A DNA stretch of 64,000 nt from Gammaproteobacteria bacterium. Its GTDB lineage: Bacteria; Pseudomonadota; Gammaproteobacteria; Eutrophobiales; Eutrophobiaceae. The stretch's first letter is position 1. Every line of letters begins with the position of its first letter. The stretch lies in NCBI GenBank assembly GCA_965222155.1, contig CBDCTH010000004.1, forward strand, positions 352,001 to 416,000. Direction: 5' to 3'. Below are positions 27,834 through 61,905 of this stretch, piece by piece. Below the pieces are notes generated by a model. That model saw only the letters and a list, made by a program, of their open reading frames with translations, was not told the DNA's origin and made no database searches. The position numbers and the translations under genes are program-made.

Positions 27834-28434
27834 AATTCAGGACACCCATAAATTTGAAGACTCAATCCAGGATAACTTAATTCGGGACACCCATAAATTA
27901 AAACCCTCAATTCAGGACACCCATAAATTAATGGGTGTCCCGGATTTCCATAAATTAATGGGTGTCCCGGATTTCCATAAATTAATGGGTGTCCCGGATT
28001 TCCATAAATTAATGGGTGTCCCGGATTTCCATAAATTAATGGGTGTCCCGGATTTCCATAAATTAATGGGTGTCCCGGATTTCCATAAATTAATGGGTGT
28101 CCCGGATTTCCATAAATTAATGGGTGTCCCGGATTTCCATAAATTAATGGGTGTCCCGGATTTCCATAAATTAATGGGTGTCCCGGATTTCCATAAATTA
28201 ATGGGTGTCCCGGATTTCCATAAATTAATGGGTGTCCCGGATTTCCATAAATTAATGGGTGTCCCGGATTTCCATAAATTAATGGGTGTCCCGGATTTCC
28301 ATAAATTAATGGGTGTCCCGGATTTCCATAAATTAATGGGTGTCCCGGATTTCCATAAATTAATGGGTGTCCCGGATTTCCATAAATTAATGGGTGTCCC
28401 GGATTTCCATAAATTAATGGGTGTCCCGGATTTC
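27834..28434. repeat. Family-1 element: three GGACACCCAT left arms, then 18 perfect 27-bp tandem units ATGGGTGTCCCGGATTTCCATAAATTA plus a partial unit
   Basis: Array 27931-28434 read directly; (28417-27931)/27=18. Confidence 0.95.
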
Positions 28435-34302: not shown

Positions 34303-35788
34303 ACGCCGGAATGACGACTCTCGCTTACATCCCTGCATCATGGCGCATGCCGTGATCCAGTGCAGCCTCCGCCCCATCATTCCGGCGTATGCGGTGATCC
34401 AGTGCAGCCTCCGCCCCGTCATTCCGGCGTATGCCGTGATCCAGTACAGCCTCTGCGCCGTCATGCCGGCGCATGTCGTGATCCGGTGTAGCCTCTGCGC
34501 CGTCATGCCGGCGTATGCCGTGATCCCGTGCAGCCTCCGCGCCGTCATGCCGGCGCATGTCGTGATCCCGTACAGTCGCCGCGCCGTCATGCCGGCGCAT
34601 GCGGTGATCCCGTACAGTCGCCGCGCCGTCATGCCGGCGCATGCGGTGATCCAGTGCAGCCTCCGCGCCGTCATGCCGGCGCATGCGGTGATCCAGTGCA
34701 GCCTCCGCCCCGTCATGCCGGCGTATGCCGTGATCCGGTACAGCCTCTGCGCCGTCATGCCGGCGCATGCGGTGATCCAGTGCAGCCTCCGCGCCGTCAT
34801 TCCGGCGTATGCCGTGATCCCGTACAGTCGCCGCGCCGTCATGCCGGCGCATGCGGTGATCCAGTGCAGCCTCCGCCCCGTCATGCCGGCGTATGCCGTG
34901 ATCCCGTACAGTCGCCGCGCCGTCATGCCGGCGCATGCCGTGATCCAGTGCAGCCTCTGCGCCGTCATGCCGGCGTATGCCGTGATCCCGTACAGTCGCC
35001 GCGCCGTCATGCCGGCGCATGCCGTGATCCAGTGCAGCCTCTGCGCCGTCATGCCGGCACATGCCGTGATCCCGTACAGTCGCCGCGCCGTCATGCCGGC
35101 GCATGCCGTGATCCAGTGCAACCTCCGCCCCGTCATGCCGGCGCATGCCGTGATCCCGTGCAGCCTCTGCGCCGTCATGCCGGCGCATGCGGTGATCCAG
35201 TGCAGCCTCCGCGCCGTCATGCCGGCGTATGCCGTGATCCCGTACAGCTTCCGCGCCGTCATGCCGGCGCATGCCGTGATCCCGTGCAGCCTCTGCGCCA
35301 TCATTCCGGCGTATGCCGTGATCCCGTGCAGCCTCTGCGCCGTCATGCCGGCGCATGCCGTGATCCCGTACAGTCGCCGCGCCGTCATGCCGGCGCATGC
35401 CGTGATCCCGTGCAGCCTCTGCGCCGTCATGCCGGCGTATGCCGTGATCCGGTACAGCTTCTGCGCCGTCATGCCGGCGTATGCCGTGATCCGGTACAGC
35501 CTCTGCGCCGTCATGCCGGCGCATGCCGTGATCCCGTGCAGCCTCTGCGCCGTCATGCCGGCGCATGCCGTGATCCCGTGCAGCCTCTGCGCCGTCATGC
35601 CGGCGCATGCCGTGATCCAGTGCAACCTCCGCCCCGTCATGCCGGCGCATGCCGTGATCCGGTACAGCCTCTGCGCCGTCATGCCGGCGCATGCGGTGAT
35701 CCAGTACAGCTTCCGCCCCGTCATGCCGGCGTATGCCGTGATCCCGTACAGCCTCTGCGCCGTCATTCCGGCGTATGCCGGAATCCAG
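34289..35788. repeat. ~35 units of a degenerate 42-bp tandem repeat derived from REP family 2, bounded by two intact oppositely oriented REPs
   Basis: Unit GTCATGCCGGCGYATGCSGTGATCCvGTRCAGyCkCyGCGCC; intact REPs near 34289-34315 and 35762-35788. Confidence 0.95.
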
Positions 35789-39754: not shown

Positions 39755-40117
39755 GGCGCCTCCCCCCGTCGTCTTACCGGCGTCTCCCCCCGTCGCCTTA
39801 CCGGCGTCTCCCCCCGTCGCCTTACCGGCGTCTCCCCCCGTCGCCATGCCGGCGCCTCCCCCCGTCGCCATGCCGGCGCCTCCCCCCGTCGCCTTACCGG
39901 CGTCTCCCCCCGTCGCCATGCCGGCGCCTCCCCCCGTCGCCTTACCGGCGTCTCCCCCCGTCGCCTTACCGGCGTCTCCCCCCGTCGCCTTACCGGCGTC
40001 TCCCCCCGTCGCCTTACCGGCGCCTCCCCCCGTCGCCTTACCGGCGTCTCCCCCCGTCGCCTTACCGGCGCCTCCCCCCGTCGCCTTACCGGCGCCTCCC
40101 CCCGTCGCCTTACCGGC
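39755..40117. repeat. ~15 units of a 24-bp C-rich tandem repeat CCGGCGYCTCCCCCCGTCGCC(TTA/ATG)
   Basis: Read directly after the metG stop, in front of a family-2 REP. Confidence 0.92.
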
Positions 40118-40129
40118 GACCGCTTTATC

Positions 40130-40354: not shown

Positions 40355-40936
40355 ATGACTGAATTATCATTCATCTTCCTGGCCGCCTGCCTGGCGAACA
40401 ACCTGGTGACCGACCACCTGCTCGGCGTGAGCCCCATGCTGGCGGCCGCGCAGAAAATCGACATTGCCGTGGATATGGCACTGGCCGTCACAGGCATCAC
40501 CACCCTGGTGGCGTTTATTTCCTGCCTGCTGGACACCTTGTTCATTACCCCCCTGCACCTGGAAAACTACCGGTTGATCATCATGGTCATGACCGTCGTG
40601 TGCGTCTGCCAGTTATCCCGGAAAATACCGGGCGGGTATTTCCCCCGACTGTTTGACCGGGACGGCCGGTTCTATCCGCTGTTGCTGATGAATTGCGCGT
40701 TACTGGGCGTCATACTGCTCAACGCGCAACAGGGGATCAGCCTGCTCGGCGCGCTGTTTTTCGGCGCCGGCGCCGGCCTGGGCTTCTCCCTGGTATTACT
40801 GAGCTTCAGCGCCATAAACCAGCGCCTGATCGTCACCGACCTACCCGCCCCATTCAAAGGCCTCCCCCTGCAAATGGTCACCCTGGGCATCATCTCCCTG
40901 GCCTTCTCAGGCTTCACCAGCCTGATAAAAACGTAA
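40355..40936 (+). CDS. rnfA: Rnf/Rsx complex subunit A
   Basis: ANNLV..LLGVSP, PLLLMNCALLG, PAPFKGLP, LAFSGF. Confidence 0.85.
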   Translation: MTELSFIFLAACLANNLVTDHLLGVSPMLAAAQKIDIAVDMALAVTGITTLVAFISCLLDTLFITPLHLENYRLIIMVMTVVCVCQLSRKIPGGYFPRLFDRDGRFYPLLLMNCALLGVILLNAQQGISLLGALFFGAGAGLGFSLVLLSFSAINQRLIVTDLPAPFKGLPLQMVTLGIISLAFSGFTSLIKT

Positions 40937-40944
40937 TGCTGGAA

Positions 40945-41049
40945 CTCTCCTAATTTGGGACACCCATAAATTGGCTCTCCTAATTTGGGACACCCATAAA
41001 TTAGAGGCACCTGATTTTTTCGATACAATTTATGGGTGTCCTGAATTAG
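40945..41049. repeat. Family-1 element: duplicated ~30-bp left arm plus right arm
   Basis: CTCTCCTAATTTGGGACACCCATAAATT x2 ... TTTATGGGTGTCCTGAATTAG. Confidence 0.9.
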
Positions 41050-41077
41050 GCATGTTGCCTGATACGGCAGTGAGATA

Positions 41078-41590
41078 ATGTTGGAATTGATAATTGTTAC
41101 CCTGGCGCTTTATTTGCTGGCGCAGTCAGCGGCTGTGTTGTTATCCGCAGCAGGCGACACAAATACACGCGCCGGGGAAGAAACCATCAAGGCGCTGGAC
41201 GCGTTGCTGCCCCAGACCCAATGTGGCGATTGCGGCTATCCCGGATGCCTGCCTTATGCCAGGGCAATCGCTGAGCAGGACATCCCGCTAAACTTATGCC
41301 CCCCCGGCGGCGCAGTCACAGTCAGGAAACTGGAGAAATTACTCGGCATGACGTCTTACCGGCATATTGCCCCGGTGACGCCCGAAAATACCATTGCCCT
41401 GATAGACGAAGAAACCTGCATCGGCTGCGTAAAGTGCATTGACGCCTGCCCCGTCGATGCCATCGTCGGCAGCGCCAAACAACTGCACGCAGTCATCCCC
41501 GAATATTGCACAGGTTGCAAACTATGCCTGCCCCCCTGCCCGGTAGACTGCATCTCAATGATCCCCCATATTAATCCGGGACACTCATAA
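41078..41590 (+). CDS. rnfB: Rnf/Rsx complex subunit B
   Basis: [14 protein letters not shown] and two ferredoxin CxxCxxCxxxCP motifs. Confidence 0.93.
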
Positions 41591-41826
41591 AAATCGGGAT
41601 ACTCCTGATTTGTAAGATGCCTAATCCAGGACATCCATAAAATCGGGATACGCCTGGTTTTTATACGATGCAATTTATGGGTGTCCTGAATTAGACTATT
41701 TTTACGTTCCATTATATGGGTGTCCTGAATTAGTCTTCCTGAATTAGCTCTGAATCAGCTTATGCAATTTATGGGTGTCCTGAATTAGTGTCCTGAATTA
41801 GTGTCCTGAATTAGCTTCTGAATTAG
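41575..41826. repeat. Family-1 element cluster including (GTGTCCTGAATTA)x3
   Basis: Degenerate left arms (GGACACTCAT, GGACATCCAT) followed by several right arms. Confidence 0.88.
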
Positions 41827-41871
41827 GATAATATGCAGTGATATTGTGCTTATTTTCGGAGCAGTGGCGGT

Positions 41872-43401
41872 ATGCGTGAATTACATGATTTCCCGGGCGG
41901 GTTGTTGCTGGAGCCGCACAAGGAGATTACCGATCAGAAAATGTCTATCCTGCACCCGCTGCCGGAGCGGATGTTCCTGCCCCTGCAACAGCATATTGGC
42001 CAACCGGCTGAGCCGGTCGTAAAAATCGGCGACAAGGTATTGAAAGGACAGATCATCGCCCGCGCCGACGGCTATATAAGCGTACCCGTCCATGCCAGCA
42101 CATCCGGGAAAATATCGGATATTGGCGATTATCACGTACCGCATCCGACCGTAAGCAAAGCGCCGTGCATCGTACTGGAACCCGATGGAAACGACGCCTG
42201 GTTCGATATCAGGCCGACTGAAGAATACGATCGAACCGAACCGGCGAAACTGCAGGAGTTAATCAAGGATTGCGGCATAGTCGGTCTGGGCGGCGCAGGC
42301 TTCCCGGCCCACGTAAAATTGATGGAGGGGGTGGAAAATGCGGTCGATACGCTAATCATAAACGGCGTTGAATGTGAACCGCATATCAGCTGCGACGATC
42401 GGCTGATCCAGGAAAAAGCCTCCTACGTCGTATCCGGTGCGCGCATGATCCGTCATGCGGTGCAGGCCAGGCATTGCGTGATCGCCGTCGAGGATGACAT
42501 GCACCTGGCATACGACGCCCTGGCCGGCCTGGTTGATGATGACCTGGAACTGGTCAAAGTGCCCACCCGTTTTCCTGCCGGCAGCGAGAATCAGCTTATA
42601 AAAACACTGACCGGCAAGGAGGTCCCCAGCGAGGGCCTGCCGATCCACATCGGCATAGTCATCCACAACGTCGCCACGGCCGCCGCGGTATATCGGGCCA
42701 TCACCCGCGGCGAACCCATCGTCTCGCGCTACGTCACGGTGACCGGAAAAGTGGATAACCCCGTAAACCTGCAAGTCCTGATCGGCACGCCGGTGGAGGA
42801 TTGCCTCGCTACCTGCGGTTATCGACACAGTGAGGATAACAAGGTGATCATCGGTGGCCCCATGACCGGCCTGCGCGTTACCAGCCCCAACATGCCGGTG
42901 ATTAAGACCACCAACTGCGTCTTCATCGAAGAAAATACCCCTGTCCAGCCGGAGATGCCCTGCATCCGCTGCGGCAAATGTGTGGATGTCTGCCCGGCCA
43001 GGCTGCTGCCCCAGCAATTGTACTGGTTCGCCAAAACCGCGGATCTCGACCAGGCCCGGGAATATCGCCTGTTCGATTGTATAGAATGCGGCTGCTGCGC
43101 TTACGTCTGCCCCAGCCGTATCCCGCTGGTGCATTACTACCGCCATGCAAAAACGCAGATTGACGTTGAAGAAAACCATGACCGGGACGCCGACCTGGCG
43201 AGACAGCGCTTTATCCGGAAAAATGAACGTTTGATAAACGAGGCAGCCGAGCGGAAAGCAGCCAAAACAGACCCCGGCGCAGAGCAGGGACAAGACACCA
43301 AAGCTGCAAAAAAAGCCTATGTGCAGGACGCCCTCGCCAGGGTCCGGGCAAAACGCCAAAATCGGTTGAAACCGGAACAAAATACAGACGACTCCGGATG
43401 A
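41872..43401 (+). CDS. rnfC: Rnf/Rsx complex subunit C
   Basis: QQHIG, GLGGAGFP, NGVECEP, GGPMTG, CIRCGKC, CIECGCC. Confidence 0.95.
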   Translation: MRELHDFPGGLLLEPHKEITDQKMSILHPLPERMFLPLQQHIGQPAEPVVKIGDKVLKGQIIARADGYISVPVHASTSGKISDIGDYHVPHPTVSKAPCIVLEPDGNDAWFDIRPTEEYDRTEPAKLQELIKDCGIVGLGGAGFPAHVKLMEGVENAVDTLIINGVECEPHISCDDRLIQEKASYVVSGARMIRHAVQARHCVIAVEDDMHLAYDALAGLVDDDLELVKVPTRFPAGSENQLIKTLTGKEVPSEGLPIHIGIVIHNVATAAAVYRAITRGEPIVSRYVTVTGKVDNPVNLQVLIGTPVEDCLATCGYRHSEDNKVIIGGPMTGLRVTSPNMPVIKTTNCVFIEENTPVQPEMPCIRCGKCVDVCPARLLPQQLYWFAKTADLDQAREYRLFDCIECGCCAYVCPSRIPLVHYYRHAKTQIDVEENHDRDADLARQRFIRKNERLINEAAERKAAKTDPGAEQGQDTKAAKKAYVQDALARVRAKRQNRLKPEQNTDDSG

Positions 43402-44402
43402 TAAACAAAACCAGCAGCTCGCCACACTGGCACGATGGTCAGACCCTGGGGAGGGTGATGACGGACGTGTGCATCGCACTCGTCCCCGGATTGCTTTGTT
43501 ACATTTGGTTGTTCGGCTCCGGCGTGTTGCTGCAATGTATCCTGGCCGTGCTGTTCGCCCTCACGTTCGAATTTACCGTCCTCAAATTGCGTCGCCGCGA
43601 CCCCTGGGTTTCGCTGCGCGACGGCAGCGCGGTCGTCACCGCGTTGCTGTTTGCGGTCAGCATATCTCCGTTAGCGGCCTGGTGGGTCTGCCTGTGTGGG
43701 ATCGCCTTTGCCATCATCATCGCCAAACATGCCTTCGGAGGTATCGGCTACAATATATTCAACCCGGCTATGGCAGGTTTTGTATTCGTCCTGGTCTGCT
43801 TCCCGGTGCAGATGAATACCTGGCCGGCCCTGTCGGCGCACGCTATCGGCGCATACCTGGGCAGCATCTTCCCCGGCGCAGGCTCGGGGCCGGATATGCT
43901 GAGCGGCGCAACGCCCCTGGATGAACTGAAGACCCGGCTGGAAATGATGGAGATGGTGTCGGAGATGAAGACTGCCCAGTTGTTCGGCTATCTTGGCGGG
44001 GCCGGCTGGGAATGGATCAATATCATGTTCATGCTGGGCGGCATCTATTTGTTGTATCGCGGCGTCATCAAGTGGCAAATCCCTGCCGCACTACTGGCAA
44101 GCGTTTTCATCGTCAGCACAGTCCTTTACTTATACGATGCGGAAACCTACGCCTCTCCGCTGTTCCATCTCTTCAGCGGCGGCACGATGTTGTGTGCATT
44201 CTTTATCGCCACGGATCCCGTCACCGCGTCCACGACCAACCGCGGACGCCTGATCTACGGCGCCTTAATCGGAATACTCATCTGCCTGATGCGCCAATGG
44301 GGGGCATTCCCCGACGGGGTGGCTTTCGCGGTACTCCTGGCCAATATCTTCGTCCCGCTGATCGACCTGCTGACCCGCCCAAAGGCATTCGGAGAAACAT
44401 AA
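43398..44402 (+). CDS. rnfD: Rnf/Rsx complex subunit D
   Basis: SSPH, FGGIGYNIFNPAM, SGATPL flavinylation site, ATDPVT. Confidence 0.95.
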   Translation: MINKTSSSPHWHDGQTLGRVMTDVCIALVPGLLCYIWLFGSGVLLQCILAVLFALTFEFTVLKLRRRDPWVSLRDGSAVVTALLFAVSISPLAAWWVCLCGIAFAIIIAKHAFGGIGYNIFNPAMAGFVFVLVCFPVQMNTWPALSAHAIGAYLGSIFPGAGSGPDMLSGATPLDELKTRLEMMEMVSEMKTAQLFGYLGGAGWEWINIMFMLGGIYLLYRGVIKWQIPAALLASVFIVSTVLYLYDAETYASPLFHLFSGGTMLCAFFIATDPVTASTTNRGRLIYGALIGILICLMRQWGAFPDGVAFAVLLANIFVPLIDLLTRPKAFGET

Positions 44403-45019
44403 TGGCCACAAAGGGAAACCCGCTGGTAAATTCTCTGCCGCTGTTATTCATCTGTTTCACGGCAGTGCTGGGTATCTATGCCCTGAGGCAATTTCTTGAG
44501 GATAACATCACCCGCAACCGGCACCTGCCCATCCTTGAGATCAGCGCCGGGATATTGCCCCTTGAGCGCGACAACGACTTGCCCGCAGACAGGTTAAGCG
44601 TCACCATGCCCACGTATTTCGGCACCGAGACCGCGACCTACGTCTATCGCGCGCGATACGGGGAAACCCCGGTGGGGCTTATCTTCAGTCCGCTCCAGGC
44701 CAGGGGCTATAACGGCATCATGGAACTGGCCGTAGGCATTCAATACGATGGAACCCTGGCCGGCGTCAGGATCCTGCAACACCGGGAAACCCCGGGCCTG
44801 GGCGACCAGGTCCACCAGGACAATTCACCCTGGATACTCGGTTTCAACGGCCACTCCCTCGACAACACCCCACAGGAAAACTGGGCAGTGAAAACAGACG
44901 GCGGCATCTTCGACCATATCAGCGGCGCCACCTCCAGCCAACGCGCCGTCATCCGCGCCGTGGAACACACCCTGAACTACTACAACGCCAATCGAAAAAC
45001 CCTCTTTAACCAGGAGTAA
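44402..45019 (+). CDS. rnfG: Rnf/Rsx complex subunit G
   Basis: GYNG, ETPGLG, SGAT flavinylation motif. Confidence 0.92.
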   Translation: MATKGNPLVNSLPLLFICFTAVLGIYALRQFLEDNITRNRHLPILEISAGILPLERDNDLPADRLSVTMPTYFGTETATYVYRARYGETPVGLIFSPLQARGYNGIMELAVGIQYDGTLAGVRILQHRETPGLGDQVHQDNSPWILGFNGHSLDNTPQENWAVKTDGGIFDHISGATSSQRAVIRAVEHTLNYYNANRKTLFNQE

Positions 45020-45151
45020 AATTTGGGACACCCATAAATTTCGTGGTAAAAATTGGGGGAAATTTGGGACACCCATAAAATTTAGGAGTAAAAATCAGGG
45101 GGAAAATTTGGGACACCCATAAAATTTAGGGGTAAAAGTCAGGACACCCGT
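45020..45151. repeat. Four family-1 left arms (GGACACCCRT) abutting the transposase element
   Basis: Arms at 45026, 45067, 45111 and 45142. Confidence 0.9.
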
Positions 45152-46409
45152 AGTATTAAATCGAATGAACCACGCTTTCTATACATTGCGCGGGGATCTC
45201 TTCAGCGACATCAACTCCACGGTAGCTGTATTGCCGGCTGCGCCGGCCTTCAGTAGAGATAAACACAGTAGATGTTGTGCGCTGGTAAACCCCAGCCGGG
45301 CGGCGCGTGGGGTGTGGGGTCAGGCTTGACAGGGTTCAGGTTTAGTTCAGCGAGTAGCTGGCCTGCCAGAGCCAATGCTGGCCGATAGCCTGGCAGTATT
45401 TCTTTATGTGCGTGGCAGACCCCAGTGCCTTCTGATGGGAGAGTACAGGAGGCTTCATAGCTGTTTGCCAATGGGCCGGTGTTATGCTGAGTTGGTCAAT
45501 CAGAGGTGGAGCGTCTTCCGGTATGGCTCCTTGCTTATCCTCCCTGATGATTCGACCCGACCAATCCAGAAGCTGCAGATAGTCATCAAAGTAAAATGGA
45601 AGGTGGTAATAATGGTTCGTCACCGTCTCCGGTTTATCTGATTTGAATGGTAGCAGGTCAGAGCTATTCCCAGCCAGTCGGCGTTTGATGGAGGTGTACT
45701 CCGACCGCATTGGGTTGTGGCTGAGACCGGCTCGGACAGGGTTTAATTCCACATAGGCCAAACATTGCAGTAAAGCGGTTTCATCCAGTAATGCTTGCGA
45801 CAGGAAGCGTCCTTCCCAAAAGCGTCCTTTACAGCCATCCTCCACATTGGCCTTACGGGCGATACGTTCGTTCAAATACCCCATGAAGCGGCTGATGCTG
45901 ATCAGGATTTTGCGCATTCGGGCAATCTCCGTATCGACGATTTCCTTTTCCGCATCTGTTAACACATTCCCTGCTTTGAACCGTACCATAAGTGGACTGA
46001 GGCGATATAACTGCTGCCAGCGGGTAAGTATCGTCTCAGCAGAGAGGGATGCAGCCAGCTCCAGGTTGACTTTGACAATCACATGATAATGATTGGACAT
46101 GATGGCATAACCCACCACATCAACACAAAATGCCCGGGATTGCGCTAAAAGCTGTTGTTCCACCCATTCTCTACGGTGTTGGTAGCTTTTCCCGGACAAG
46201 GCGTCGAAGCCACATAGGAAAGCACGGCGAACACAACGGGAAATACAGTGGTAATAACAAGTTTCTGCAAGACAGATTTGCTGGCGCCGAGCAATGGTCA
46301 TGGTCAACTCCTGTAGTAATTGGGTATCCTGTAACGATTATTGTAATAACGTTTGGCTCAATGTCAATAGTCTGTCCGATGTCTAGAACCGGTTAATTTA
46401 TGGGTGTCC
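45142..46409 (-). mobile_element. Putative autonomous RAYT-like element bounded by inverted GGACACCCRT/ATGGGTGTCC ends
   Basis: Left end 45142-45151 and right end 46400-46409 enclose the Y1 transposase gene. Confidence 0.7.
45342..46307 (-). CDS. REP-associated-like tyrosine (HUH/Y1, IS200-related) transposase
   Basis: YHCISRCVRRAFL, HUH motif MSNHYH, FWEGRF, catalytic YVELNPVRAG. Confidence 0.88.
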   Translation of the reverse strand: MTMTIARRQQICLAETCYYHCISRCVRRAFLCGFDALSGKSYQHRREWVEQQLLAQSRAFCVDVVGYAIMSNHYHVIVKVNLELAASLSAETILTRWQQLYRLSPLMVRFKAGNVLTDAEKEIVDTEIARMRKILISISRFMGYLNERIARKANVEDGCKGRFWEGRFLSQALLDETALLQCLAYVELNPVRAGLSHNPMRSEYTSIKRRLAGNSSDLLPFKSDKPETVTNHYYHLPFYFDDYLQLLDWSGRIIREDKQGAIPEDAPPLIDQLSITPAHWQTAMKPPVLSHQKALGSATHIKKYCQAIGQHWLWQASYSLN

Positions 46410-46424
46410 TGGATTTTTCAGGGC

Positions 46425-46590
46425 AGGTAATTTGGGACACCCATAAATTTCGTGGGGAGGTAATTTGGGACACCCATAAATTTCGTGGGGAGTATTGGGA
46501 CATACATAAAATCAGTTTATGGGTGTCCCAAATTTGCTCCCAAATTTGTCTCTGGAATTTATGGGTGTCCTGAATTTATGTCCTGAATTT
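46425..46590. repeat. Family-1 element: duplicated 32-bp left arm plus right arms
   Basis: AGGTAATTTGGGACACCCATAAATTTCGTGGGG x2; ATGGGTGTCC at ~46519 and 46561. Confidence 0.9.
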
Positions 46591-46606: not shown

Positions 46607-47989
46607 ATGCGACATTTCCCGGTTTTTCTGGACCTGAATGGGCGCCGTTGTCTTGTGGTCGGCGCTGGTGAGGTGGCCGCGAGGAAAGCCCAGCAATTGC
46701 TCAGGTCGAACGCTGATCTGTTGATCGTCGCGCCCCGGGCGGGGGAGGGGATACTGGCCCTGAAGCAGCAGGGCAGGGTGAGGTATGAGGCAAGGGAATT
46801 CCTGCCGGAAGACGTTAGCGGCTGCGCGCTGGTGATAGCAGCAACGCCTGACAAGCAGGTGAACAGTCAAGTCGCCAGCGCGGCCAAGACCGGCAACGTG
46901 CCGGTCAACGTGGTCGATAACCCCGCCCTGTGCAGCTTCATCATGCCTTCGGTGGTTGACCGGGACCCGGTGCAAATCGCGGTGTCCACGGGCGGGGCCT
47001 CACCGGTCCTGGCCCGGCTGTTACGGGTAAAACTGGAAACGCTGATACCGGCAACCTACGGCCGGCTGGCGACTGTGGTGCGGGAGTTCCGCGGCCGGGT
47101 AAAACAGCGCTTCCCGGAATTCAGACAACGGCGCCGGTTCTGGGAACATATCCTGCAGGGGCCGGTGGTCGAGATGCTGTTTGCCGGACGGGAAGCCGCT
47201 GCCATCGAGGCACTGGAGAACGAACTGGACAAAGCCACGCCGACGGATCACCAGACCGGTGAAGTCTACCTGGTCGGCGGCGGTCCGGGCGATCCTGACC
47301 TGTTGACGTTCCGCGCCCTGCGCCTGATGCAACAGGCCGACGTCGTGCTGTACGACAGGCTGGTTGCCCCGGCCATAGTGGAACTGGTCAGGAAAGAGGC
47401 CCGGCGGATCTACGTAGGCAAACAGAGTGACAGCCATACGGTGCCACAGTCCGAGCTTAACGCCATGCTGGTCAAGCTGGCGCAACAGGGCAAACGCGTA
47501 TTGCGCCTGAAAGGGGGCGACCCGTTCATATTCGGCCGCGGCGGTGAGGAAATTGAGGAACTTGCCGCCGCCGCCGTCCCGTTTCAGGTCGTACCGGGCA
47601 TCACCGCCGCCGCCGGTTGCGCCTCCTACGCCGGCATCCCGTTGACCCACCGCGATTACGCCCAATCCTGCCTGTTCGTAACCGGCCACCTGAAGGATGG
47701 CAAGCTGAACTTTAACTGGCCGGCCCTGATCCAGCCGAAACAGACCGTGGCCATCTACATGGGAGTCAAGGGAATCGACGTGCTACAAAAGAATCTCCTG
47801 GAACACGGCATGGACGCGGATATGCCCGCCGCCATCATTCAGCAAGGCACCACGCCGGAGCAGAAAGTCTATGTGGGAAAGGTATCCACCCTGACAAAAA
47901 CCGTCGCCGCCAATGAGATCAAACCCCCGTCAATGATCGTCATCGGCGAGGTGGTAAAGCTACACGAGAAGCTGACCTGGTACCGGTAA
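46607..47989 (+). CDS. cysG: Siroheme synthase
   Basis: VGAGEVA, NVVDNP, GGGPGDPDLLT, RLKGGDPFIFGRGGEE. Confidence 0.96.
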   Translation: MRHFPVFLDLNGRRCLVVGAGEVAARKAQQLLRSNADLLIVAPRAGEGILALKQQGRVRYEAREFLPEDVSGCALVIAATPDKQVNSQVASAAKTGNVPVNVVDNPALCSFIMPSVVDRDPVQIAVSTGGASPVLARLLRVKLETLIPATYGRLATVVREFRGRVKQRFPEFRQRRRFWEHILQGPVVEMLFAGREAAAIEALENELDKATPTDHQTGEVYLVGGGPGDPDLLTFRALRLMQQADVVLYDRLVAPAIVELVRKEARRIYVGKQSDSHTVPQSELNAMLVKLAQQGKRVLRLKGGDPFIFGRGGEEIEELAAAAVPFQVVPGITAAAGCASYAGIPLTHRDYAQSCLFVTGHLKDGKLNFNWPALIQPKQTVAIYMGVKGIDVLQKNLLEHGMDADMPAAIIQQGTTPEQKVYVGKVSTLTKTVAANEIKPPSMIVIGEVVKLHEKLTWYR

Positions 47990-51269: not shown

Positions 51270-51942
51270 AATTTGGGACACCCATAAATTCATTTTATGG
51301 GTGTCCTGAATTAATGGGTGTCCTGAATTAATGGGTGTCCTGAATTAATGGGTGTCCTGAATTAATGGGTGTCCTGAATTAATGGGTGTCCTGAATTAAT
51401 GGGTGTCCTGAATTAATGGGTGTCCTGAATTAATGGGTGTCCTGAATTAATGGGTGTCCTGAATTAATGGGTGTCCTGAATTAATGGGTGTCCTGAATTA
51501 ATGGGTGTCCTGAATTAATGGGTGTCCTGAATTAATGGGTGTCCTGAATTAATGGGTGTCCTGAATTAATGGGTGTCCTGAATTAAATTAATGCCTTGTT
51601 GAACATTACAAACTCATGGGTGTCCTGAATTAATGGGTGGAATTATGGGTGTCCTGAATTAATGGGTGTCCTGAATTAATGGGTGTCCTGAATTAATGGG
51701 TGTCCTGAATTAATGGGTGTCCTGAATTAATGGGTGTCCTGAATTAATGGGTGTCCTGAATTAATGGGTGTCCTGAATTAATGGGTGTCCTGAATTAATG
51801 GGTGTCCTGAATTAATGGGTGTCCTGAATTAATGGGTGTCCTGAATTAATGGGTGTCCTGAATTAATGGGTGTCCTGAATTAATGGGTGTCCTGAATTAA
51901 TGGGTGTCCTGAATTAATGCCTTGTTGAACATTACAAACTCA
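51270..51942. repeat. Family-1 element: one left arm, then 34 tandem 17-bp units ATGGGTGTCCTGAATTA interrupted by a copy of the downstream flank
   Basis: 17 units at 51297-51585, 1 at 51616, 16 at 51645-51916; ATGCCTTGTTGAACATTACAAACTCA at 51591 and 51917. Confidence 0.95.
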
Positions 51943-51982: not shown

Positions 51983-52285
51983 ATGAGGATTATCGCGCTC
52001 CCGACGCTCAAGAAGTTCTGGGAGCAGAGCCCTGCATATACGGATGCGGCTGAGCCGGTCCGGGCCTGGTATCGGCATGCATTACGAGCTGACTGGGCCT
52101 CACCCGCTGATGTCAAACAGGATTTTGGCAATGCCAGTATTCTGAAGGACGGACGAGTGGTGTTTAATATAGCCGGTAACAAGTATCGGCTGGTTGTCTG
52201 GATTAATTACGCTTATCGAGTGGTTTACATACGGTTTATCGGAACACACGCCCAATATGATCAAATCGACGCACAAGTTATTTAG
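51983..52285 (+). CDS. higB: HigB-family toxin
   Basis: MRIIALPTLKKFW, VVFNIAGNKYRLVV, FIGTHAQYD. Confidence 0.9.
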   Translation: MRIIALPTLKKFWEQSPAYTDAAEPVRAWYRHALRADWASPADVKQDFGNASILKDGRVVFNIAGNKYRLVVWINYAYRVVYIRFIGTHAQYDQIDAQVI

Positions 52286-52300
52286 CCTCTGGAGGAACAA

Positions 52301-52684
52301 GTGATGGACGTTAAACCCATCAAAACCGATGCCGACTATCAAGCGGCGCTGCAAGAGATAGCAACGCTGATGACGGCGCGATTGGATTCACCGGAGGGTG
52401 AAAGGCTGGATGTATTGACGACACTGGTTGAGGCTTATGAACGGAAGCATTATCCGCTTGAATTACCCGACCCGGTGGCAGCCATCAAGTTTGAAATGGA
52501 ACAAAAGGGTCTAACGGCCAAAGATCTGGAACCGATGATTGGCAGGAGAAACCGGGTCTATGAAGTTTTGAATCGCAAACGTTCACTTACCCTTAAAATG
52601 ATTTGGCGCCTGCATGAGCAGCTAGGCATCCCTGCCGAGTCATTAATCAAACAGGCCCCTGGTCCGGATAACCAGGCCGCATAA
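52301..52684 (+). CDS. higA: HigA-family HTH antitoxin
   Basis: PIKTDADYQAAL, LVEAYE, PDPVAAI, EVLNRKRSLTL. Confidence 0.9.
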   Translation: MMDVKPIKTDADYQAALQEIATLMTARLDSPEGERLDVLTTLVEAYERKHYPLELPDPVAAIKFEMEQKGLTAKDLEPMIGRRNRVYEVLNRKRSLTLKMIWRLHEQLGIPAESLIKQAPGPDNQAA

Positions 52685-52751
52685 ACGCTTTATCCAGACC
52701 TGGACGGTAACGTTCTGGATGACGAAGCTAACAAATTATGTGTTTGACTTG

Positions 52752-54029
52752 ATGGCCACACCGGTCTGCCGCCAGTGTCTTTTGCCGTTCCTCCTGCCCG
52801 GCATTGCCCCATCCATCGCTTTGGGCAACGAAGCATCAGGCACACAAGTTCCCGACCCTGAAGCGCCCGGGCTAACCTGGTCCATCGCCCGCTACGAAAC
52901 GCGTATTGCCGAACTGGAGGCCGCCGAAGGTCCCCATGCAGCCGAGCTGGTTGAAGCCCACTCCAGCCTGGGCATGCTCTACCAGCGGGCCGGAGACCAC
53001 GGCCAGGCGATTGCAGTATTGCGGGACGCCCTGCAGTCGGCGCGCGTCAACGATGGGCTGCACAATATGAGCCAGGTCGCCATCCTGGAGGCCATCATCG
53101 ACAGCCAGGTCGCCCTGAGCGCCAGGGATGATCTGCGGCGCAACTATGAATACCTGTTCTGGCTGTACCAGCGCAACTACGGCGATTACAGCGCCGGCCT
53201 GGTGCCGGTGATCAAGAGGGTGGGGCAGTGGTACTTCGACCTCTACAACTTCAGCCCCCCGAACACCACGGTGGAACCCCTGATCGCGGCGGACGCCCTG
53301 TATGCCAAGGCGCTGAAAATCCTCCCGGGGGATGCGCCGTCCCGGGACCGGGCAGACATCTTATATAAGGTGGCCGTCATCAACCACCACGTCGCTGAGG
53401 ACGTGCAGGCCCCGATGCTGTCCCACCGGGAAATACGGGAAGCCATGATCCCCCACGGCCGGGGCAGCCCCTACCTCAACGAAACGGCCGTGCGCCAGTA
53501 CTACGCCGACCAGAGCTTCCACAAGGGCAAGCGCTCGCTGAAGCGCATCATCGAGACCTATGAGAAAACCCTGCCCGACGGCATCATGGACTACACCCGG
53601 GCGCTGGTATTCATGGGCGACTGGCTGACCGTGCAACGCCGGGTCCTGGAGGGCGCCCGCCTGTACCAGCGCGCCTGGGCCGCCCTGAAAGAACACAACG
53701 CCGACCCGGCGCAGGTGGATGAACTGTTCGGCGAACCGCAACCCATAGAGCAACTCCCCATCCCGGGCGAGCCGGAGCCGCAAGTCGGCGCCGACAACTA
53801 CTACGTGGATGCCCTGCTGGACGTACCCGAGTCAGGCTGGCCCACCAACATCAGGATACAGGCCATCCACCCGCCCGGCGAAACCACCCTGATCCAGCGC
53901 GCCGAACGCGGTATCGCCGCCACCCGCTACCGCCCCCGCTACTGCAACGGCCAACCGGTCGTCACCAGCGACGTCCCCCTGCGCTTCATCTTCAAGCACA
54001 AAGACCAACCCGGCTGGCTGCATTATTAA
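52752..54029 (+). CDS. Exported TPR-like protein with TonB C-terminal-like domain, copy 1
   Basis: Signal-like N-terminus, helical repeats (LGMLYQRAGDHGQAIAVL), C-terminal RYRPRY.NGQPV. Confidence 0.6.
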   Translation: MATPVCRQCLLPFLLPGIAPSIALGNEASGTQVPDPEAPGLTWSIARYETRIAELEAAEGPHAAELVEAHSSLGMLYQRAGDHGQAIAVLRDALQSARVNDGLHNMSQVAILEAIIDSQVALSARDDLRRNYEYLFWLYQRNYGDYSAGLVPVIKRVGQWYFDLYNFSPPNTTVEPLIAADALYAKALKILPGDAPSRDRADILYKVAVINHHVAEDVQAPMLSHREIREAMIPHGRGSPYLNETAVRQYYADQSFHKGKRSLKRIIETYEKTLPDGIMDYTRALVFMGDWLTVQRRVLEGARLYQRAWAALKEHNADPAQVDELFGEPQPIEQLPIPGEPEPQVGADNYYVDALLDVPESGWPTNIRIQAIHPPGETTLIQRAERGIAATRYRPRYCNGQPVVTSDVPLRFIFKHKDQPGWLHY

Positions 54030-54034
54030 ACCTC

Positions 54035-54098
54035 TAAATTCGGGACACCCATAAATTGATTTTGTGGGTGTCCCGAATTAATGGGTGTCCCAAATTAA
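54035..54098. repeat. Family-1 hairpin element
   Basis: TTCGGGACACCCATAAA...TTTGTGGGTGTCCCGAA, plus an extra right arm. Confidence 0.9.
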
Positions 54099-54644: not shown

Positions 54645-54847
54645 TAAATTCAGGACACCCATAAAATGGGGCAAATTCGGGACATCCATAAAATAGGGGT
54701 CAATCCAGGGGGATAAATTTGGGAGGGTAAATTTAGGAGGTAAATTTAGGACACCCATAAAATGGGCAAGAATAAATCCTGGACACCCACGAAATATTTT
54801 ATGGATGTCCTGAATCTATGGGTGTCCTAAATTTGCGTCCTGAATTG
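54645..54847. repeat. Family-1 element cluster
   Basis: Several GGACAYCCAY left arms, then ATGGRTGTCC right arms. Confidence 0.88.
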
Positions 54848-55466: not shown

Positions 55467-55568
55467 AAATTCAGGACACCCATAAAATGGGACAAATCCG
55501 GGACACCCACAAAATATTTTGTAGATACCCTTAATTTATGGGTGTCCTGAATTAGCTTCCTGAATTAG
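55467..55568. repeat. Family-1 element cluster
   Basis: Two left arms and one right arm with partial duplication. Confidence 0.88.
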
Positions 55569-56199: not shown

Positions 56200-56260
56200 A
56201 AATCCGGGACACCCACGAAATATTTTGTGGATGTCCTGAATTTATGGATGTCCTGAATTT
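56200..56260. repeat. Family-1 hairpin element
   Basis: GGACACCCACGAAATATTTTGTGGATGTCC plus an extra right arm. Confidence 0.85.
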
Positions 56261-56310: not shown

Positions 56311-57606
56311 ATGACCGAACCCGTCTGCCGATATTTTTTGCCATTGCTTGTTATCGGCATTGTTCCATCCTTCTCTCCGGCCAACGAGCCGGCAGACATC
56401 CACCGCCCTGACTCTACTGTCGCTACACAAGCCCCCTCCGATCCCGGGCTGACCCGGTCCATCGCAAGCTATGAAACCCGCATTGCCGAACTGGAGGCTG
56501 CCGGAGGACCTCATGCAGCCGAGCTCGTCGAAGCCCACTCCAGCCTGGGCATGCTCTACCAGCGGGCCGGAGACCACGGCCAGGCGATTGCAGTATTGCG
56601 GGACGCCCTGCAGTCGGCGCGCGTCAACGATGGGCTGCACAGCATGAGCCAGGTCGCCATCCTGGAGGCCATCATCGACAGCCAGGTTGCCCTGGGCGCC
56701 AGGGATGATCTGCGGCGCAACTATGAATACCTGTTCTGGCTGTACCAGCGCAATTACGGCGATCACAGCGCCGGCCTGGTGCCGGTGATCAAGAGGGTGG
56801 GCCAGTGGTACTTCGACCTCTACAACTTCAGCCCCCCGAACACCACGGTGGAACCCCTGATCGCGGCGGACGACCTGTATGCCAAAGCGCTGAAAATCCT
56901 CCCGGAGGATGCGCCGCCCCGGGACCGGGCAGACATCTTATATAAGGTGGCCGTCATCAACCACCACGTCGCTGAGGACGTGCAGGCCCCGATGCTGTCC
57001 CACCGGGAAATACGGGAAGCCATGATCCCCCACGGCCGGAGCAGCCCCTACCTCAACGAAACGGCCGTGCGCCAGTACTACGCCGACCAGAGCTTCCACA
57101 AGGGCAAGCGCTCGCTGAAGCGCATCATCGAGACCTATGAGAAAACCCTGCCCGACGGCATCATGGACTACACCCGGGCGCTGGTATTCATGGGCGACTG
57201 GCTGACCGTGCAACGCCGGGTCCTGGAGGGCGCCCGCCTGTACCAGCGCGCCTGGGCCGCCCTGAAAGAACACGACGCCGACCTGGCGCTGGTGGATGAG
57301 TTATTCGGCGAACCGCAACCCATAGAGCAACTCCCCATCCCGGGCGAGCCGGAGCCGCAAGTCGGCGCCGACAACTACTACGTGGATGCCCTGCTGGACG
57401 TACCCGAGTCAGGCTGGCCCACCAACATCAGGATACAGGCCATCCACCCGCCCGAACAGACCACCCTGGTCCGCCGCGCCGAGCGCGGCATCGCCGCCAC
57501 CCGCTACCGCCCCCGCTACCGCAACGGCCAACCGGTCGCCAGCACCGACGTCCCCCTGCGCTTCATCTTCAAGCACAAAGACCAACCCGGCTGGCTGCAT
57601 TATTAA
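56311..57606 (+). CDS. Exported TPR-like protein with TonB C-terminal-like domain, copy 2
   Basis: Near-identical to 52752-54029 apart from the N-terminal ~45 aa. Confidence 0.6.
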   Translation: MTEPVCRYFLPLLVIGIVPSFSPANEPADIHRPDSTVATQAPSDPGLTRSIASYETRIAELEAAGGPHAAELVEAHSSLGMLYQRAGDHGQAIAVLRDALQSARVNDGLHSMSQVAILEAIIDSQVALGARDDLRRNYEYLFWLYQRNYGDHSAGLVPVIKRVGQWYFDLYNFSPPNTTVEPLIAADDLYAKALKILPEDAPPRDRADILYKVAVINHHVAEDVQAPMLSHREIREAMIPHGRSSPYLNETAVRQYYADQSFHKGKRSLKRIIETYEKTLPDGIMDYTRALVFMGDWLTVQRRVLEGARLYQRAWAALKEHDADLALVDELFGEPQPIEQLPIPGEPEPQVGADNYYVDALLDVPESGWPTNIRIQAIHPPEQTTLVRRAERGIAATRYRPRYRNGQPVASTDVPLRFIFKHKDQPGWLHY

Positions 57607-57611
57607 ACCTC

Positions 57612-57719
57612 TAAATTCGGGACACCCATAAATTGGGTTTGGGAGGGATGAATTTGGGACACCCATGAATTGAATTTATGGGTGTCCTGAAATTGGAAAT
57701 TAATGGGTGTCCTGAATTA
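57612..57719. repeat. Family-1 element cluster
   Basis: Two left arms and two right arms. Confidence 0.88.
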
Positions 57720-57822: not shown

Positions 57823-58998
57823 ATGAATTCAAAACCCCCGTTCATGTTCGAAAGACTCATTAAAAAACCGCTGGAATCACGCAAAAGTTTTTTTCTCTTC
57901 GGCCCAAGAGGGACCGGCAAGACCACCTGGTTGAAACACCATCTCCCCGATGCGCTGTTTATTAACCTGCTCCAATCTGAATTCTACAATCGCCTGACTG
58001 CGAACCCCGGATACCTCAGAGAGTTCATTCCCCCCGACTACACAAAGCGGGTTATTATTGACGAGATACAGCGTATCCCTGCGCTGCTGAACGAAGTACA
58101 TGACCTGATCGAATCAAGAAAACTGGACTTTGTCCTGACCGGTTCAAGCGCCAGGGCGTTAAGACGGAAAGGGGTCAACCTGTTAGCCGGCCGTGCCCTG
58201 ACGTATGCCATGCACCCGTTGACGGTGACTGAGCAGCAGGACGCATTCGACCTGCGCAAATCCATACGGCTCGGCCATTTACCCGCCCGGTTCAACGAGA
58301 ACGACCCTGGCAAATATCTCAAGGACTACGTGCAGACATACCTCAGGGAAGAAGTCATGCAGGAGGGCCTGACCCGCAACATCGGCCACTTTTCCCGATT
58401 TCTGGAAGTAGCCAGCTTCTCCCAGGGAACAACGGTCAATATCAGCGCCGTAGCACGCGAGGCACAGGTCGAGCGACCGGTTGCGGAGAACTATTTCTCC
58501 ATATTGGAAGACCTGCTCATAGCCGTGCGCCTGCCGGTATTCAGCCGCAAGGCAAAAAGAAAACTCATCACACACAATAAATTTTATTTTTTCGATGTCG
58601 GCGTGTATCGAGCGATACGGCCCGTCGGACCCCTGGACTCCGATGCAGAACTGGACGGTCCTGCATTGGAAACACTGGTGCTCCAGGAACTCAGGGCGCT
58701 GAACGATTATTTGGAATGCGATTACCGGATATACTTCTGGCGCACACGAACCAACCTGGAAATCGATTTTGTCCTGTACGGGCCGCGCGGCCTGCTGGCA
58801 ATCGAGATTAAACGCTCGGCGCATGTCCAATTCAAACAGACACGATCGTTGCGGGAATTCAAAAAAGATTATCCCCCCGCCAGGTGCTACGTGTTCTACG
58901 GTGGAACCACTCCCCGATACATGGAAGACGTCACCGTGCTGCCCATCGAATACGCACTGAAGAATCTAGACCGGATGTTAACGGACAACCTGAACTGA
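57823..58998 (+). CDS. AAA+ ATPase with DUF4143 C-terminal domain
   Basis: GPRGTGKT, IDEIQ, LTGSS, KFYFFDVG, EIDF...AIEIK. Confidence 0.88.
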   Translation: MNSKPPFMFERLIKKPLESRKSFFLFGPRGTGKTTWLKHHLPDALFINLLQSEFYNRLTANPGYLREFIPPDYTKRVIIDEIQRIPALLNEVHDLIESRKLDFVLTGSSARALRRKGVNLLAGRALTYAMHPLTVTEQQDAFDLRKSIRLGHLPARFNENDPGKYLKDYVQTYLREEVMQEGLTRNIGHFSRFLEVASFSQGTTVNISAVAREAQVERPVAENYFSILEDLLIAVRLPVFSRKAKRKLITHNKFYFFDVGVYRAIRPVGPLDSDAELDGPALETLVLQELRALNDYLECDYRIYFWRTRTNLEIDFVLYGPRGLLAIEIKRSAHVQFKQTRSLREFKKDYPPARCYVFYGGTTPRYMEDVTVLPIEYALKNLDRMLTDNLN

Positions 58999-59112
58999 TA
59001 TGGGTGTCCCGAATTTATGGGTGTCCTGAATTAGCTTCCCGTCCTGAACTAGCCCTTAGAAAGATTCAGGGACGGGTATCAACCCGTCCGTAATTCATGG
59101 GTGTCCTAAATT
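58999..59112. repeat. Family-1 right arms
   Basis: Three ATGGGTGTCC copies after the ATPase stop. Confidence 0.85.
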
Positions 59113-59669: not shown

Positions 59670-60060
59670 AGACTGGATGCCGGGTGAAGCCCGGCATGGC
59701 GACGGGGACGCCGGGTCACAGCAAATCCGGGACCAAATCCGGGACACCCATAAAATCGTTTTGTGGGTGTCCCGAATTAATGGGTGTCCTGAATTAATGG
59801 GTGTCCTGAATTAATGGGTGTCCTGAATTAATGGGTGTCCTAATGGGTGTCCTGAATTAATGTCCTGAATTAATGGGTGTCCCGAATTAATGGGTGTCCT
59901 GAATTAATGGGTGTGAATTAATGGGTGTCCCGAATTAATGGGTGTCCCGAATTAATGGGTGTCCCGAATGAATTAATGGGTGTCCCGAATTAATGGGTGT
60001 CCCGAATTAATGGGTGTCCCGAATTAAGGGTGTCCCGAATTAATGGGTGTCCCGAATTAG
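59670..60060. repeat. Family-2 REP, then family-1 hairpin with a degenerate 17-bp tandem array (~16 units with internal deletions)
   Basis: ATGGGTGTCC(C/T)GAATTA units from ~59764 to 60059, including truncated units. Confidence 0.92.
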
Positions 60061-60074
60061 CTTTCCCAAGTCGC

Positions 60075-60608
60075 TCAGCCAAACACCCGCGGCACAAAAC
60101 CCACGTCGTTGGTGATACTTGCGCTGCTGCCGGTGGCCCGGATCACATACAGGCCCTGCCGTTGCGCATACACCTGTACGGACGCATCCGCCTTTAGGTA
60201 TGCCACCGCACCGTAGATCTTCTTTCCTTTGTAGACTGGCGCATAATCCGTGAACTTGCCCAGCTTCTCAAGAAACTGCGCCACGTCCTCTGCGCGCAGC
60301 GTGGTCTTTACCTCCACTACCACCACTTCTTCACCATTCTCAGCCAGGATATCAAACTCAAAATGCTCGCCATTACGCCGGCCATTCAATCGGGTATGCG
60401 TGGACCGTACGGTTATCCCTCGGGCGTGCAACAAGGGAACCAGGTCACCTTCCACCAGGCTCTCCATCAGTGCGCCCCACTGGCTGGTAAATAACCCTTC
60501 CAGCTTTTTCATCCGCCGGTTGGCCTCCTTGTGCTCATTGGACACCTCGCGCAGGATGGCCCGGATTTCTTCGAAGGTGGCGGGTTCACGTTGCAGTTCT
60601 TTTTCCAT
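60075..60608 (-). CDS. Coiled-coil plus PD-(D/E)xK nuclease-like protein (DUF3782-like)
   Basis: WGALMESLV, EFDILAENGEEVVVVEVK, GLYVIRATG. Confidence 0.7.
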   Translation of the reverse strand: MEKELQREPATFEEIRAILREVSNEHKEANRRMKKLEGLFTSQWGALMESLVEGDLVPLLHARGITVRSTHTRLNGRRNGEHFEFDILAENGEEVVVVEVKTTLRAEDVAQFLEKLGKFTDYAPVYKGKKIYGAVAYLKADASVQVYAQRQGLYVIRATGSSASITNDVGFVPRVFG

Positions 60609-60792
60609 GATGCATTTCTCCTTATCAGTTCAGGTGGCGTTCACGAATAGCGCGGAGCCGGGCATGTAATACAAACCCGTCCCCGTGTCAGACATATTAT
60701 TATAGATAACGCGAAATAAGCAAATTCAGGATAAGCAAATTCAGGACACCCATAAATTCACTTTGCAGAAAGAACCGGGCCAGGCTTCAACC

Positions 60793-61159: not shown

Positions 61160-61450
61160 ATGCAGACTACAACCGTATCGCAACTCAAAATGTCGATGAG
61201 CGCCTATTTACGTCAGGTCAAGGCCGGTGAAGAACTGTTAATTACTGAGCATGGTCGTCCGGTTGCGCGTCTGTTGCCCGTTGCGGACCTTGCGTCTCTA
61301 CCCGAGCACCTGGCTGACATGGAAAAAAAAGGCTTGCTCAAACGTGCCGAGAAATCCTTGCCGGCGGATTTTTGGACCCTGCCTCGTCCCTCAGACCCAC
61401 AGGCGACAGTACGTTCGGCGGTCTTGCAGGAGCGCAAACAGGGCTGGTGA
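61160..61450 (+). CDS. Phd/YefM-family antitoxin
   Basis: LKMSMSAYLRQVKAGEELLITEHGRPVARL. Confidence 0.88.
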   Translation: MQTTTVSQLKMSMSAYLRQVKAGEELLITEHGRPVARLLPVADLASLPEHLADMEKKGLLKRAEKSLPADFWTLPRPSDPQATVRSAVLQERKQGW

Positions 61451-61905
61451 AATTCTGGGATACGTCGGCCATTGTGCCCCTGTATATGCATGAGCCGAAC
61501 TCGACCATAGTACAGCACCTGATCGCTGAGGATTCCTCAATCGTGGTATGGTGGGGCACGCACAGCGAATGCATATCCGCATTGATGCGACAGGTAAGAT
61601 CAGGCGGTTTCACAACGTCAGACGAACACGCCGCCCGTCAGGTATTGCATACTCTGATGCAATCCTGGGCAGAAATACAACCAGGTGAAGCATTACGCAA
61701 CACGGCTGAACGTTTATTGGCAGTGCATCCCTTACGCGCCGCGGATGCCTTGCAACTGGCCGCTGCCATCCAGTGGTGTCAGGGGCTCACAACCGGTCAG
61801 GGCCTTGTTGCCTTTGATCAACGGCTGCGTGACGCGGCATATCGGGAAGGCTTTACTGTTCTTCCCGGGAGTGAGGGCATCCCGCCCTCGACGGGGGCAG
61901 GCTGA
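61447..61905 (+). CDS. vapC: VapC/PIN-domain toxin
   Basis: FWDTSAIV, LRAADALQLAAA, FDQRL; GTGA overlap with the antitoxin. Confidence 0.88.
   Translation: MKFWDTSAIVPLYMHEPNSTIVQHLIAEDSSIVVWWGTHSECISALMRQVRSGGFTTSDEHAARQVLHTLMQSWAEIQPGEALRNTAERLLAVHPLRAADALQLAAAIQWCQGLTTGQGLVAFDQRLRDAAYREGFTVLPGSEGIPPSTGAG

Follow-up and report, generated by a model that had tools for sequence, protein, structure and literature searches.

A subclass 2.3 TnpA-Y1 transposase gene lies at the centre of a halo of hairpin repeats that carry its end motif

A tyrosine transposase gene in this gammaproteobacterial genome lies at the centre of a halo of hairpin repeats that carry the motif of its own inverted ends, and across the genus the abundance of this motif correlates with the gene. 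The gene-centred, lineage-rewritten halo is the new element here, whereas the enzyme subclass and the kind of ends were already known. We found no description of a gene-centred halo in the literature on RAYT/REPIN, TIRYT and subclass 2.3, as covered by the main texts of non-subscription papers. The pattern of the halo across genomes suggests that the enzyme spreads repeats mostly near its place of synthesis and not chromosome-wide.

The window, which is the whole stretch of 64,000 nucleotides that we analysed, contains the transposase open reading frame at 45342-46307 on the minus strand. The 321-residue protein of the initial annotation is obtained from a TTG codon, but the likely start is the ATG at 46301, giving 319 residues. 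The gene, its ends and its neighbours are as follows.

44402-45019, plus strand: left neighbour, an FMN-binding Rnf/Rsx subunit, which we take to be rsxG
45020-45125, plus strand: three direct arm copies outside the downstream end, forming no hairpin
45142-45151, plus strand: inner downstream end arm, one mismatch, 191 nt beyond the stop codon
45342-46301, minus strand: TnpA-Y1 subclass 2.3 gene, 319 aa, intact, the only copy in this genome
45753-45755, minus strand: putative catalytic Tyr183 within YVELNP, its role assumed from the family
46083-46091, minus strand: HUH motif codons H71-Y72-H73
46340-46367, minus strand: sigma70-like candidate promoter TTGACA-16-TACAAT, by consensus match only (11/12), just inside the upstream arm
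46395-46415, minus strand: upstream end arm, core 46400-46409, 99-108 nt ahead of the ATG, the usual position in the subclass
46429-46590, unstranded: multi-arm hairpin abutting the upstream end, followed by a short stutter
46607-47989, plus strand: right neighbour, the sirohaem synthase gene cysG

The motifs on which the protein had been called a RAYT-like Y1 transposase are all present (NHYH from residue 70, FWEGRF from 161 and YVELNP from 183), and H71, Y72, H73 and Y183 are invariant in 60/60 family members. A predicted structure (pLDDT 86.7, from 60 sequences) gave Escherichia coli TnpA(REP) (4ER8) as its best fold match, with a Z score of 12.3 and an rmsd of 3.0 over 157 aligned residues, followed by the TnpA proteins of IS608 and ISDra2. 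The HUH motif and single tyrosine on this predicted Y1 fold place the protein in the TnpA-Y1 superfamily. 4ER8 surfaced only in the fold search, and a PDB sequence search with the family alignment returned no real match. The match to Pfam Y1_Tnp (PF01797) is weak at 20.7 bits, under the cut-off of 23, and the NCBIfam RAYT model NF047646 scores 41.6 bits, under its cut-off of 80. No Pfam match to a C-terminal helix-turn-helix of the DnaA_C, HTH_23 or HTH_28-like kind was found among the 60 members. The protein has NHYH, WE, YVELNP and TS, with D replacing E (YVDLNP) in most relatives, and 112 residues separate the HUH motif at 71 from the tyrosine at 183. For subclass 2.3, Table 1 of PMC6006769 gives NHYH, WE, YVDLNP and TS, about 325 residues and an HUH-Tyr distance of about 110; by motifs, length and spacing the sequence fits this subclass. 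The Y1 assignment and the TnpA(REP) fold stand, but the protein is not a classical RAYT.

The gene is enclosed by inverted arms, as had been proposed, although the pair is exact on one side only: the upstream core at 46400-46409 is ATGGGTGTCC, while the inner downstream arm at 45142-45151, GGACACCCGT, matches it at 9/10 positions. Duplicated arms are likewise stacked outside both ends, but the two stacks differ in kind. On the downstream side (45026-45120) there are three direct, non-folding copies (z -0.6), and on the upstream side (46435-46570) a separate forward-forward-reverse-reverse hairpin (z -8.3). Contigs from a public run cover 40752-46454 with one differing letter and 13 gap columns, and since they possibly come from the source sample, they do not count as independent support. 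In these contigs only, and among the joints listed, there was no clean joint excising the gene between its arms.

We surveyed the ends of 79 homologous loci, setting the six closest aside and counting only flanks that were long enough. The ends of the subclass are a short inverted GGACA(C/G/T)(C/T)CA, a relaxed arm pattern derived from those same 79 loci, which is found forward upstream in 44/70, reversed downstream in 41/65 and at both ends in 34/63. Arms in the wrong orientation occur in 1/70 upstream and 3/65 downstream flanks, and random windows give about 2%. Positions across the subclass cluster at -76 to -101 and at about +160 to +235, compared to -108 and +191 for the gene studied here. 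The expectation that homologues would be flanked by the motif is thus borne out. Because inverted arms bound the gene at both ends in many homologous loci, subclass 2.3 is, judged on sequence, TIRtron-like in the sense of PMC3733652. The arms have no GTAG foot and are not palindromic singly, in agreement with the early remark that the core is not a classical GTAG-type REP.

In this genome the transposase gene is present once, and it was found in 13 of the 22 other genomes of the genus. It occupies the orthologous rsx-cysG locus in 12/13 carriers, in ten by direct adjacency and in G012 and G016 via flanks at contig ends. It has a dS similar to that of its neighbours and a dN/dS of 0.13-0.33, and wherever groups are supported its tree and that of rsxG are congruent. 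By these measures the gene is single-copy, vertically inherited and conserved in the genus (G014 excepted), and it is for this reason not a jumping master copy in this lineage; the proposal that it is the autonomous member of its repeat family is not supported in that form. The subclass is mobile elsewhere: unrelated loci in G014 carry four recent copies that are 96-98% identical and have stacked ends, and other genera have 3-17 gene copies or fragments. On two contigs, G006:C54 and G023:C2, the gene and part of the rsx operon have been inverted, and the breakpoints fall at arm clusters.

The window holds 101 exact copies of the core against 0.18 expected from shuffles. These form 13 sites between 27840 and 60744, 11 of them away from the gene, which agrees with the dozen or so further sites first noticed from 27.8 to 60.8 kb. 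A search of 27000-64000 with Rfam returned nothing at gathering scores. The halo sites are listed below.

27834-28434, unstranded: three forward arms and a 19-copy tandem array of a 27-nt unit
40952-41047, unstranded: hairpin, z -8.0
41672-41825, plus strand: three reverse arms with truncated stutters
51270-51919, unstranded: hairpin and about 37 copies of a 17-nt unit
54037-54096, unstranded: short hairpin and an extra arm, z -7.5
54647-54833, unstranded: multi-arm hairpin
55468-55553, unstranded: hairpin, z -6.9
56201-56260, unstranded: degenerate hairpin, GGACACCCAC variant
57614-57718, unstranded: two forward and two reverse arms
58995-59112, plus strand: three reverse arms
59736-60059, unstranded: hairpin and about 18 copies of a 17-nt unit
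60738-60759, plus strand: single arm with stutter

The right side of the halo is a variable island. Between its arms lie a HigB-HigA pair, an AAA_14/DUF4143 ATPase, an Hjc-like nuclease and a PIN gene (51983-52684, 57823-58998, 60075-60608 and 61372-61905). A TPR-like gene is duplicated at 52719-54029 and 56311-57606 in this genome only, being single in eight relatives; the duplicated segment, 1.1 kb and about 97% identical, ends at an arm in both copies. This is a single case, and recombination between arms could explain it as well. Beyond the window, at G000:C4:418000-429200, four paralogous small open reading frames are each followed by the same arm in the same orientation, amid many single arms, which looks like repeated duplication of a gene with its arm.

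Among 233 multi-arm clusters in the examined sequence of nine genomes, 160 run forward-then-reverse, which is the order of the gene's own ends, 57 have a single orientation, 16 are mixed and none is simply reverse-forward. The unit in one subclade measures 55 nt and folds into a hairpin whose stem is 21 bp and whose loop is 13 nt; outside that subclade, hairpin lengths and outer bases are lineage-specific. At arm-to-arm junctions, 20/240 show clean duplications, and 18 of these 20 end 8-15 nt outside the core with a variable inner start; as clean duplications are so few among the junctions, the support that they lend to a cut position is weak. There was no fixed cut dinucleotide at the arm junctions, and a replication-strand bias of arm amplification gave no consistent signal, the skews being weak. 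A fixed target-site duplication was rejected, with a direct repeat of at least 10 nt (10-27 nt) in 5/170 forward-to-reverse clusters and 2/1493 controls; one flanking repeat, of 27 nt, was compared with an empty site. Separately, young hairpins at G024:C1:1732600 and G019:C1:3586163 lie inside other repeat elements with direct repeats of 10 and 14 nt; six duplications of this sort carry a short filler whose second-last base is C, a feature noticed post hoc. Extra arms in the halo clusters of nine genomes tend to be gene-distal (34 vs 17 on the left, 46 vs 28 on the right) in a count that takes in gene-adjacent clusters and shared sites; the tendency is strongest in G023, G025 and G006 and reversed in G019. 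At one further locus (L031), arms are interleaved with many small unrelated open reading frames and two gene copies in a cassette-array-like arrangement.

Tandem amplification had been proposed to mark a distinct repeat-remodelling system, and this did not hold. Only 4/44 long tandem arrays in the genome carry the core, other repeat families often have arrays next to them, and REPIN clusters in tandem, flanks included, are already published, as the accessible text of PMC3116915 shows; tandem arrays were thus rejected as a hallmark. Long arrays with 24-, 42- and 25-nt units, at 39755-40118 and 34342-35780 in the window and at G000:C4:439935-440350, come from another hairpin repeat family, and many arrays genome-wide derive from families of that kind.

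The repeats concentrate around the gene. In this genome 24/63 sites lie within 50 kb of it against 1.38 expected (p = 1e-23), so the hairpins described as dispersed do occur at sites beyond the gene but are concentrated round it. The six most abundant other repeat families have 0-4 sites within that distance and are not enriched, and a seventh, small family is mildly enriched (3/17, p = 0.006). For eight relatives we fetched 100-200 kb around the gene, and in 8/8 of them the 50 kb on either side of the gene, 1.8-2.9% of the genome, hold 26-69% of copies (counted as copies, not independent sites), an 11-39-fold excess. Between 31 and 74% of copies in the halo genomes lie outside the halo. With sites pooled, density is 5.9 per 10 kb in the first 2 kb from the gene and declines with distance, reaching 0.3 at 80-100 kb. 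The nine halos of the genus all lie round a single orthologous locus, and species have many sites and junctions in common, for which reason we count them as one origin with lineage-specific turnover. A second Y1 gene in this genome (L002, G000:C12:1984795-2024995), a 314-aa frame with subclass 2.1-like motifs by eye, has 6/17 sites of its end motif within 40 kb, two of them its own ends, and is a possible second, smaller halo. A third Y1 gene (L001) has no halo in its end family.

A halo of this kind could also arise if the enzyme diffused freely and each event were short-range, within the same fork or single-stranded gap, so that copies spread stepwise from the founding element and the halo is slow diffusion from the oldest source. 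We regard this as unlikely, although it is the most serious of the alternatives. Adjacent hairpins are more alike than permuted ones in 4/8 genomes, where neighbours share loops, and not significantly so in the other 4/8; a Mantel test of similarity by distance is significant in 1/8. A hairpin is closer to its same-genome neighbour than to its orthologous copy in 25/36 non-independent pairs, and whole elements in other genera also form local tandem groups: among 76 gene copies in 11 genomes, 25 have a second copy no more than 6 kb away, against 1.6 expected (79 rows, three fragment pairs merged). Stepwise hopping should, however, let distal copies seed secondary halos. Short gaps are not over-represented among the distal sites of 5/5 genomes, at least in the part listed, a random model fits the gaps, and the maximum is 4-6 sites per 100 kb; for four of the five, the count covers the chromosome part ahead of the halo, among the matches listed. 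An enzyme that acts close to its gene explains this better than hopping from any copy would, but the point is not decisive, in particular if the distal copies are young.

In its abundance the motif tracks the gene. Thirteen genus carriers hold 55-247 exact core copies, except G018 with 26, and 8/9 gene-less genomes of the genus hold 2-19. The remaining one, G019, holds 160 and has a single hairpin in place of the gene at the same junction. In a class survey of 400 genomes, the gene or a fragment was found in 7/9 motif-rich genomes, picked by eye, and in 5/39 others taken in list order (p = 0.0003, with kin not independent). A tenth motif-rich genome (G043) also carries the gene, G182 has 45 dispersed copies and a gene fragment only, and in the motif-rich G187 and G446 no gene was found with this query. 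Among 31 distant genomes that carry the gene, most show no amplification of the arm over the control.

The halo is also rewritten, and it thins once the gene is lost. G018 has 276 copies of the one-base variant GGACAACCAT, and in its 200-kb region 161 arms are of this variant and 14 of the old type; the rewriting of the halo thus postdates divergence. Around rsxG, 80 kb contain 41-100 relaxed arms in three gene-bearing genomes and 52 in G019, compared to three each in the gene-less G008 and G013 and none in G009, G010, G015 and G017; 160 kb of controls contain none. G008 and G013 are nested among gene-bearers, and a single gene tree underlies the order of losses. Other families, at unrelated loci, also have local pile-ups near the gene. 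In G280, 11/19 exact copies are on the 44-kb contig with the gene (5/12 sites once the end is removed), and in G078 no arm match is further than about 9 kb from a gene copy (16/16), although about six of the matches are element ends and the pattern was chosen from that locus. G380, G468 and G348 have 8-14 arms near the gene, nearly all in one orientation, counted without a genome-wide denominator. None of the conclusions given here draws on the unpublished genome G111.

These data bear on a second alternative, in which an ancestral burst in a permissive region produced the halo, host recombination and slippage homogenised what was inherited, and the enzyme's present position is incidental. The single orthologous locus with its many shared sites would agree with this, as would the greater reach of the halo on the side holding the variable gene island, the tandem arrays grown by other hairpin families and the new copies in G014, which have no halo. 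Yet the other abundant families are not enriched in the region, the G018 sweep would need both arms to have changed in concert at numerous sites, close and distant, the arms disappear once the gene is lost, pile-ups recur at unrelated loci, and on its contig the nearest GC-skew switch is about 250 kb away from the halo; we therefore find this reading improbable. An ordinary RAYT-REPIN pair acting in trans genome-wide, its local excess a large REPtron-side cluster, would account for the single copy, vertical inheritance, purifying selection, doublet hairpins with variable spacers and the 39/63 sites outside the halo, but it is very improbable and already largely refuted by the distance decay, given that in the accessible texts a random model fits REP spacing in P. 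fluorescens SBW25 beyond 200 bp (PMC3116915) and REPs are said to occur generally across the genome (PMC8266576, PMC3733652), against 11-39-fold over 100 kb here, and that the arm has no GTAG tag and is not itself palindromic.

The reading that we prefer, and hold to be somewhat probable, is a cis-preferring HUH nicking-and-joining enzyme belonging to a TIRtron-like subclass 2.3 element. This element would have settled at the rsxG-cysG junction in the ancestor of much of the genus and been inherited vertically since. The enzyme would recognise the GGACACCCA arm, that of G018 preferring the GGACAACCA arm, and would nick single-stranded DNA about 8-15 nt past the core, outside the arm, as the end-points of the duplications suggest. 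In the chemistry of the HUH/Tyr family a 5' end is held on the tyrosine and then joined to a 3'-OH. Here Tyr183 would hold the 5' end and rejoin it to another 3'-OH, and this nicking and joining could insert, replace or stutter two-arm hairpins of 40-60 nt, equivalent to the element's two ends without the gene. We propose that copies accumulate within about 50 kb and are continually rewritten because the enzyme works mainly in cis, near its own gene, with rarer long jumps scattering isolated copies.

More tentatively, and with rather less confidence than in the case studied here, domesticated HUH/Y1 enzymes of subclass 2.3, and perhaps also 2.1, may be short-range DNA editors with a territory of tens of kilobases round their own gene, in which they insert, overwrite and amplify end hairpins and sometimes duplicate neighbouring genes. 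If true, the chromosomal position of the gene would determine where a local zone of high evolvability lies, and this may explain its retention at one locus. The case for in vivo repeat spread by RAYT-like enzymes rests mostly on co-occurrence, and a gene-centred gradient that is lineage-rewritten and fades once the gene is gone offers unusually direct genomic evidence for causation. It also names a candidate substrate, the 55-nt hairpin, for a subclass without a described target, and connects, inside a single genus, a mobile state of several locally clustered copies with a settled state of one copy and its halo.

The closest known relatives are the other members of subclass 2.3, with which the protein shares NHYH, WE, Y-x-x-x-NP, TS, about 320 residues, an HUH-Tyr distance of about 110 and membership in a gammaproteobacterial, often multicopy subclass. 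Quentin, Siguier, Chandler and Fichant (2018), in the accessible text of PMC6006769, give subclass 2.3 as without REP-like flanks, a negative result for GTAG-type REPs and not a positive trait. Here, in contrast, hairpins flank the gene, inverted ends bound the subclass, and the genus amplifies these ends into a hairpin halo round a single-copy, vertically inherited gene. TIRtrons were defined by Di Nocera et al. (2013) as a tyrosine transposase gene between TIRs, with TIR families occurring single, as dimers or clustered (PMC3733652). The gene studied here is similarly bounded by inverted repeats unrelated to GTAG REPs, and the TIR motif GGGGWSAS is matched at 7/8 positions by the TTTGGGACAC variant and at 6/8 by CAGGACAC; published TIRYTs are, however, mostly of subclass 2.1 with a C-terminal HTH, and the accessible parts of that paper mention no spatial halo. 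RAYT/TnpA(REP) with REPINs shares the fold of 4ER8, single copy, vertical inheritance, doublet hairpins with a variable spacer and tandem clusters (PMC3116915, PMC8266576, PMC3479197 and bioRxiv 10.1101/2021.07.10.451892, in their accessible parts), whereas classical RAYTs (groups 2 and 3; subclasses 2.2 and 2.5) have GTAG-tagged palindromic REPs, both features that our arms lack. Copies here also concentrate round the gene, and relatives of the gene are mobile as whole units, while PMC8266576, in its accessible text, states no evidence of tnpA(REP) mobility. The DDE transposases of IS1 and IS903 are more active near the encoding gene, as we propose for our enzyme, a cis preference attributed for IS1 to transposase instability; their chemistry is different, and the preference was measured for the encoding element and not for a chromosomal cloud of miniature copies (PMC12903888, accessible parts). 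Lastly, the IS200/IS605 TnpA proteins (IS608, ISDra2) share the HUH/Y1 core but have about 150 residues, Y-x-x-x-Q and subterminal hairpins with no TIRs, compared to 319 residues, Y-x-x-x-NP and inverted ends here.
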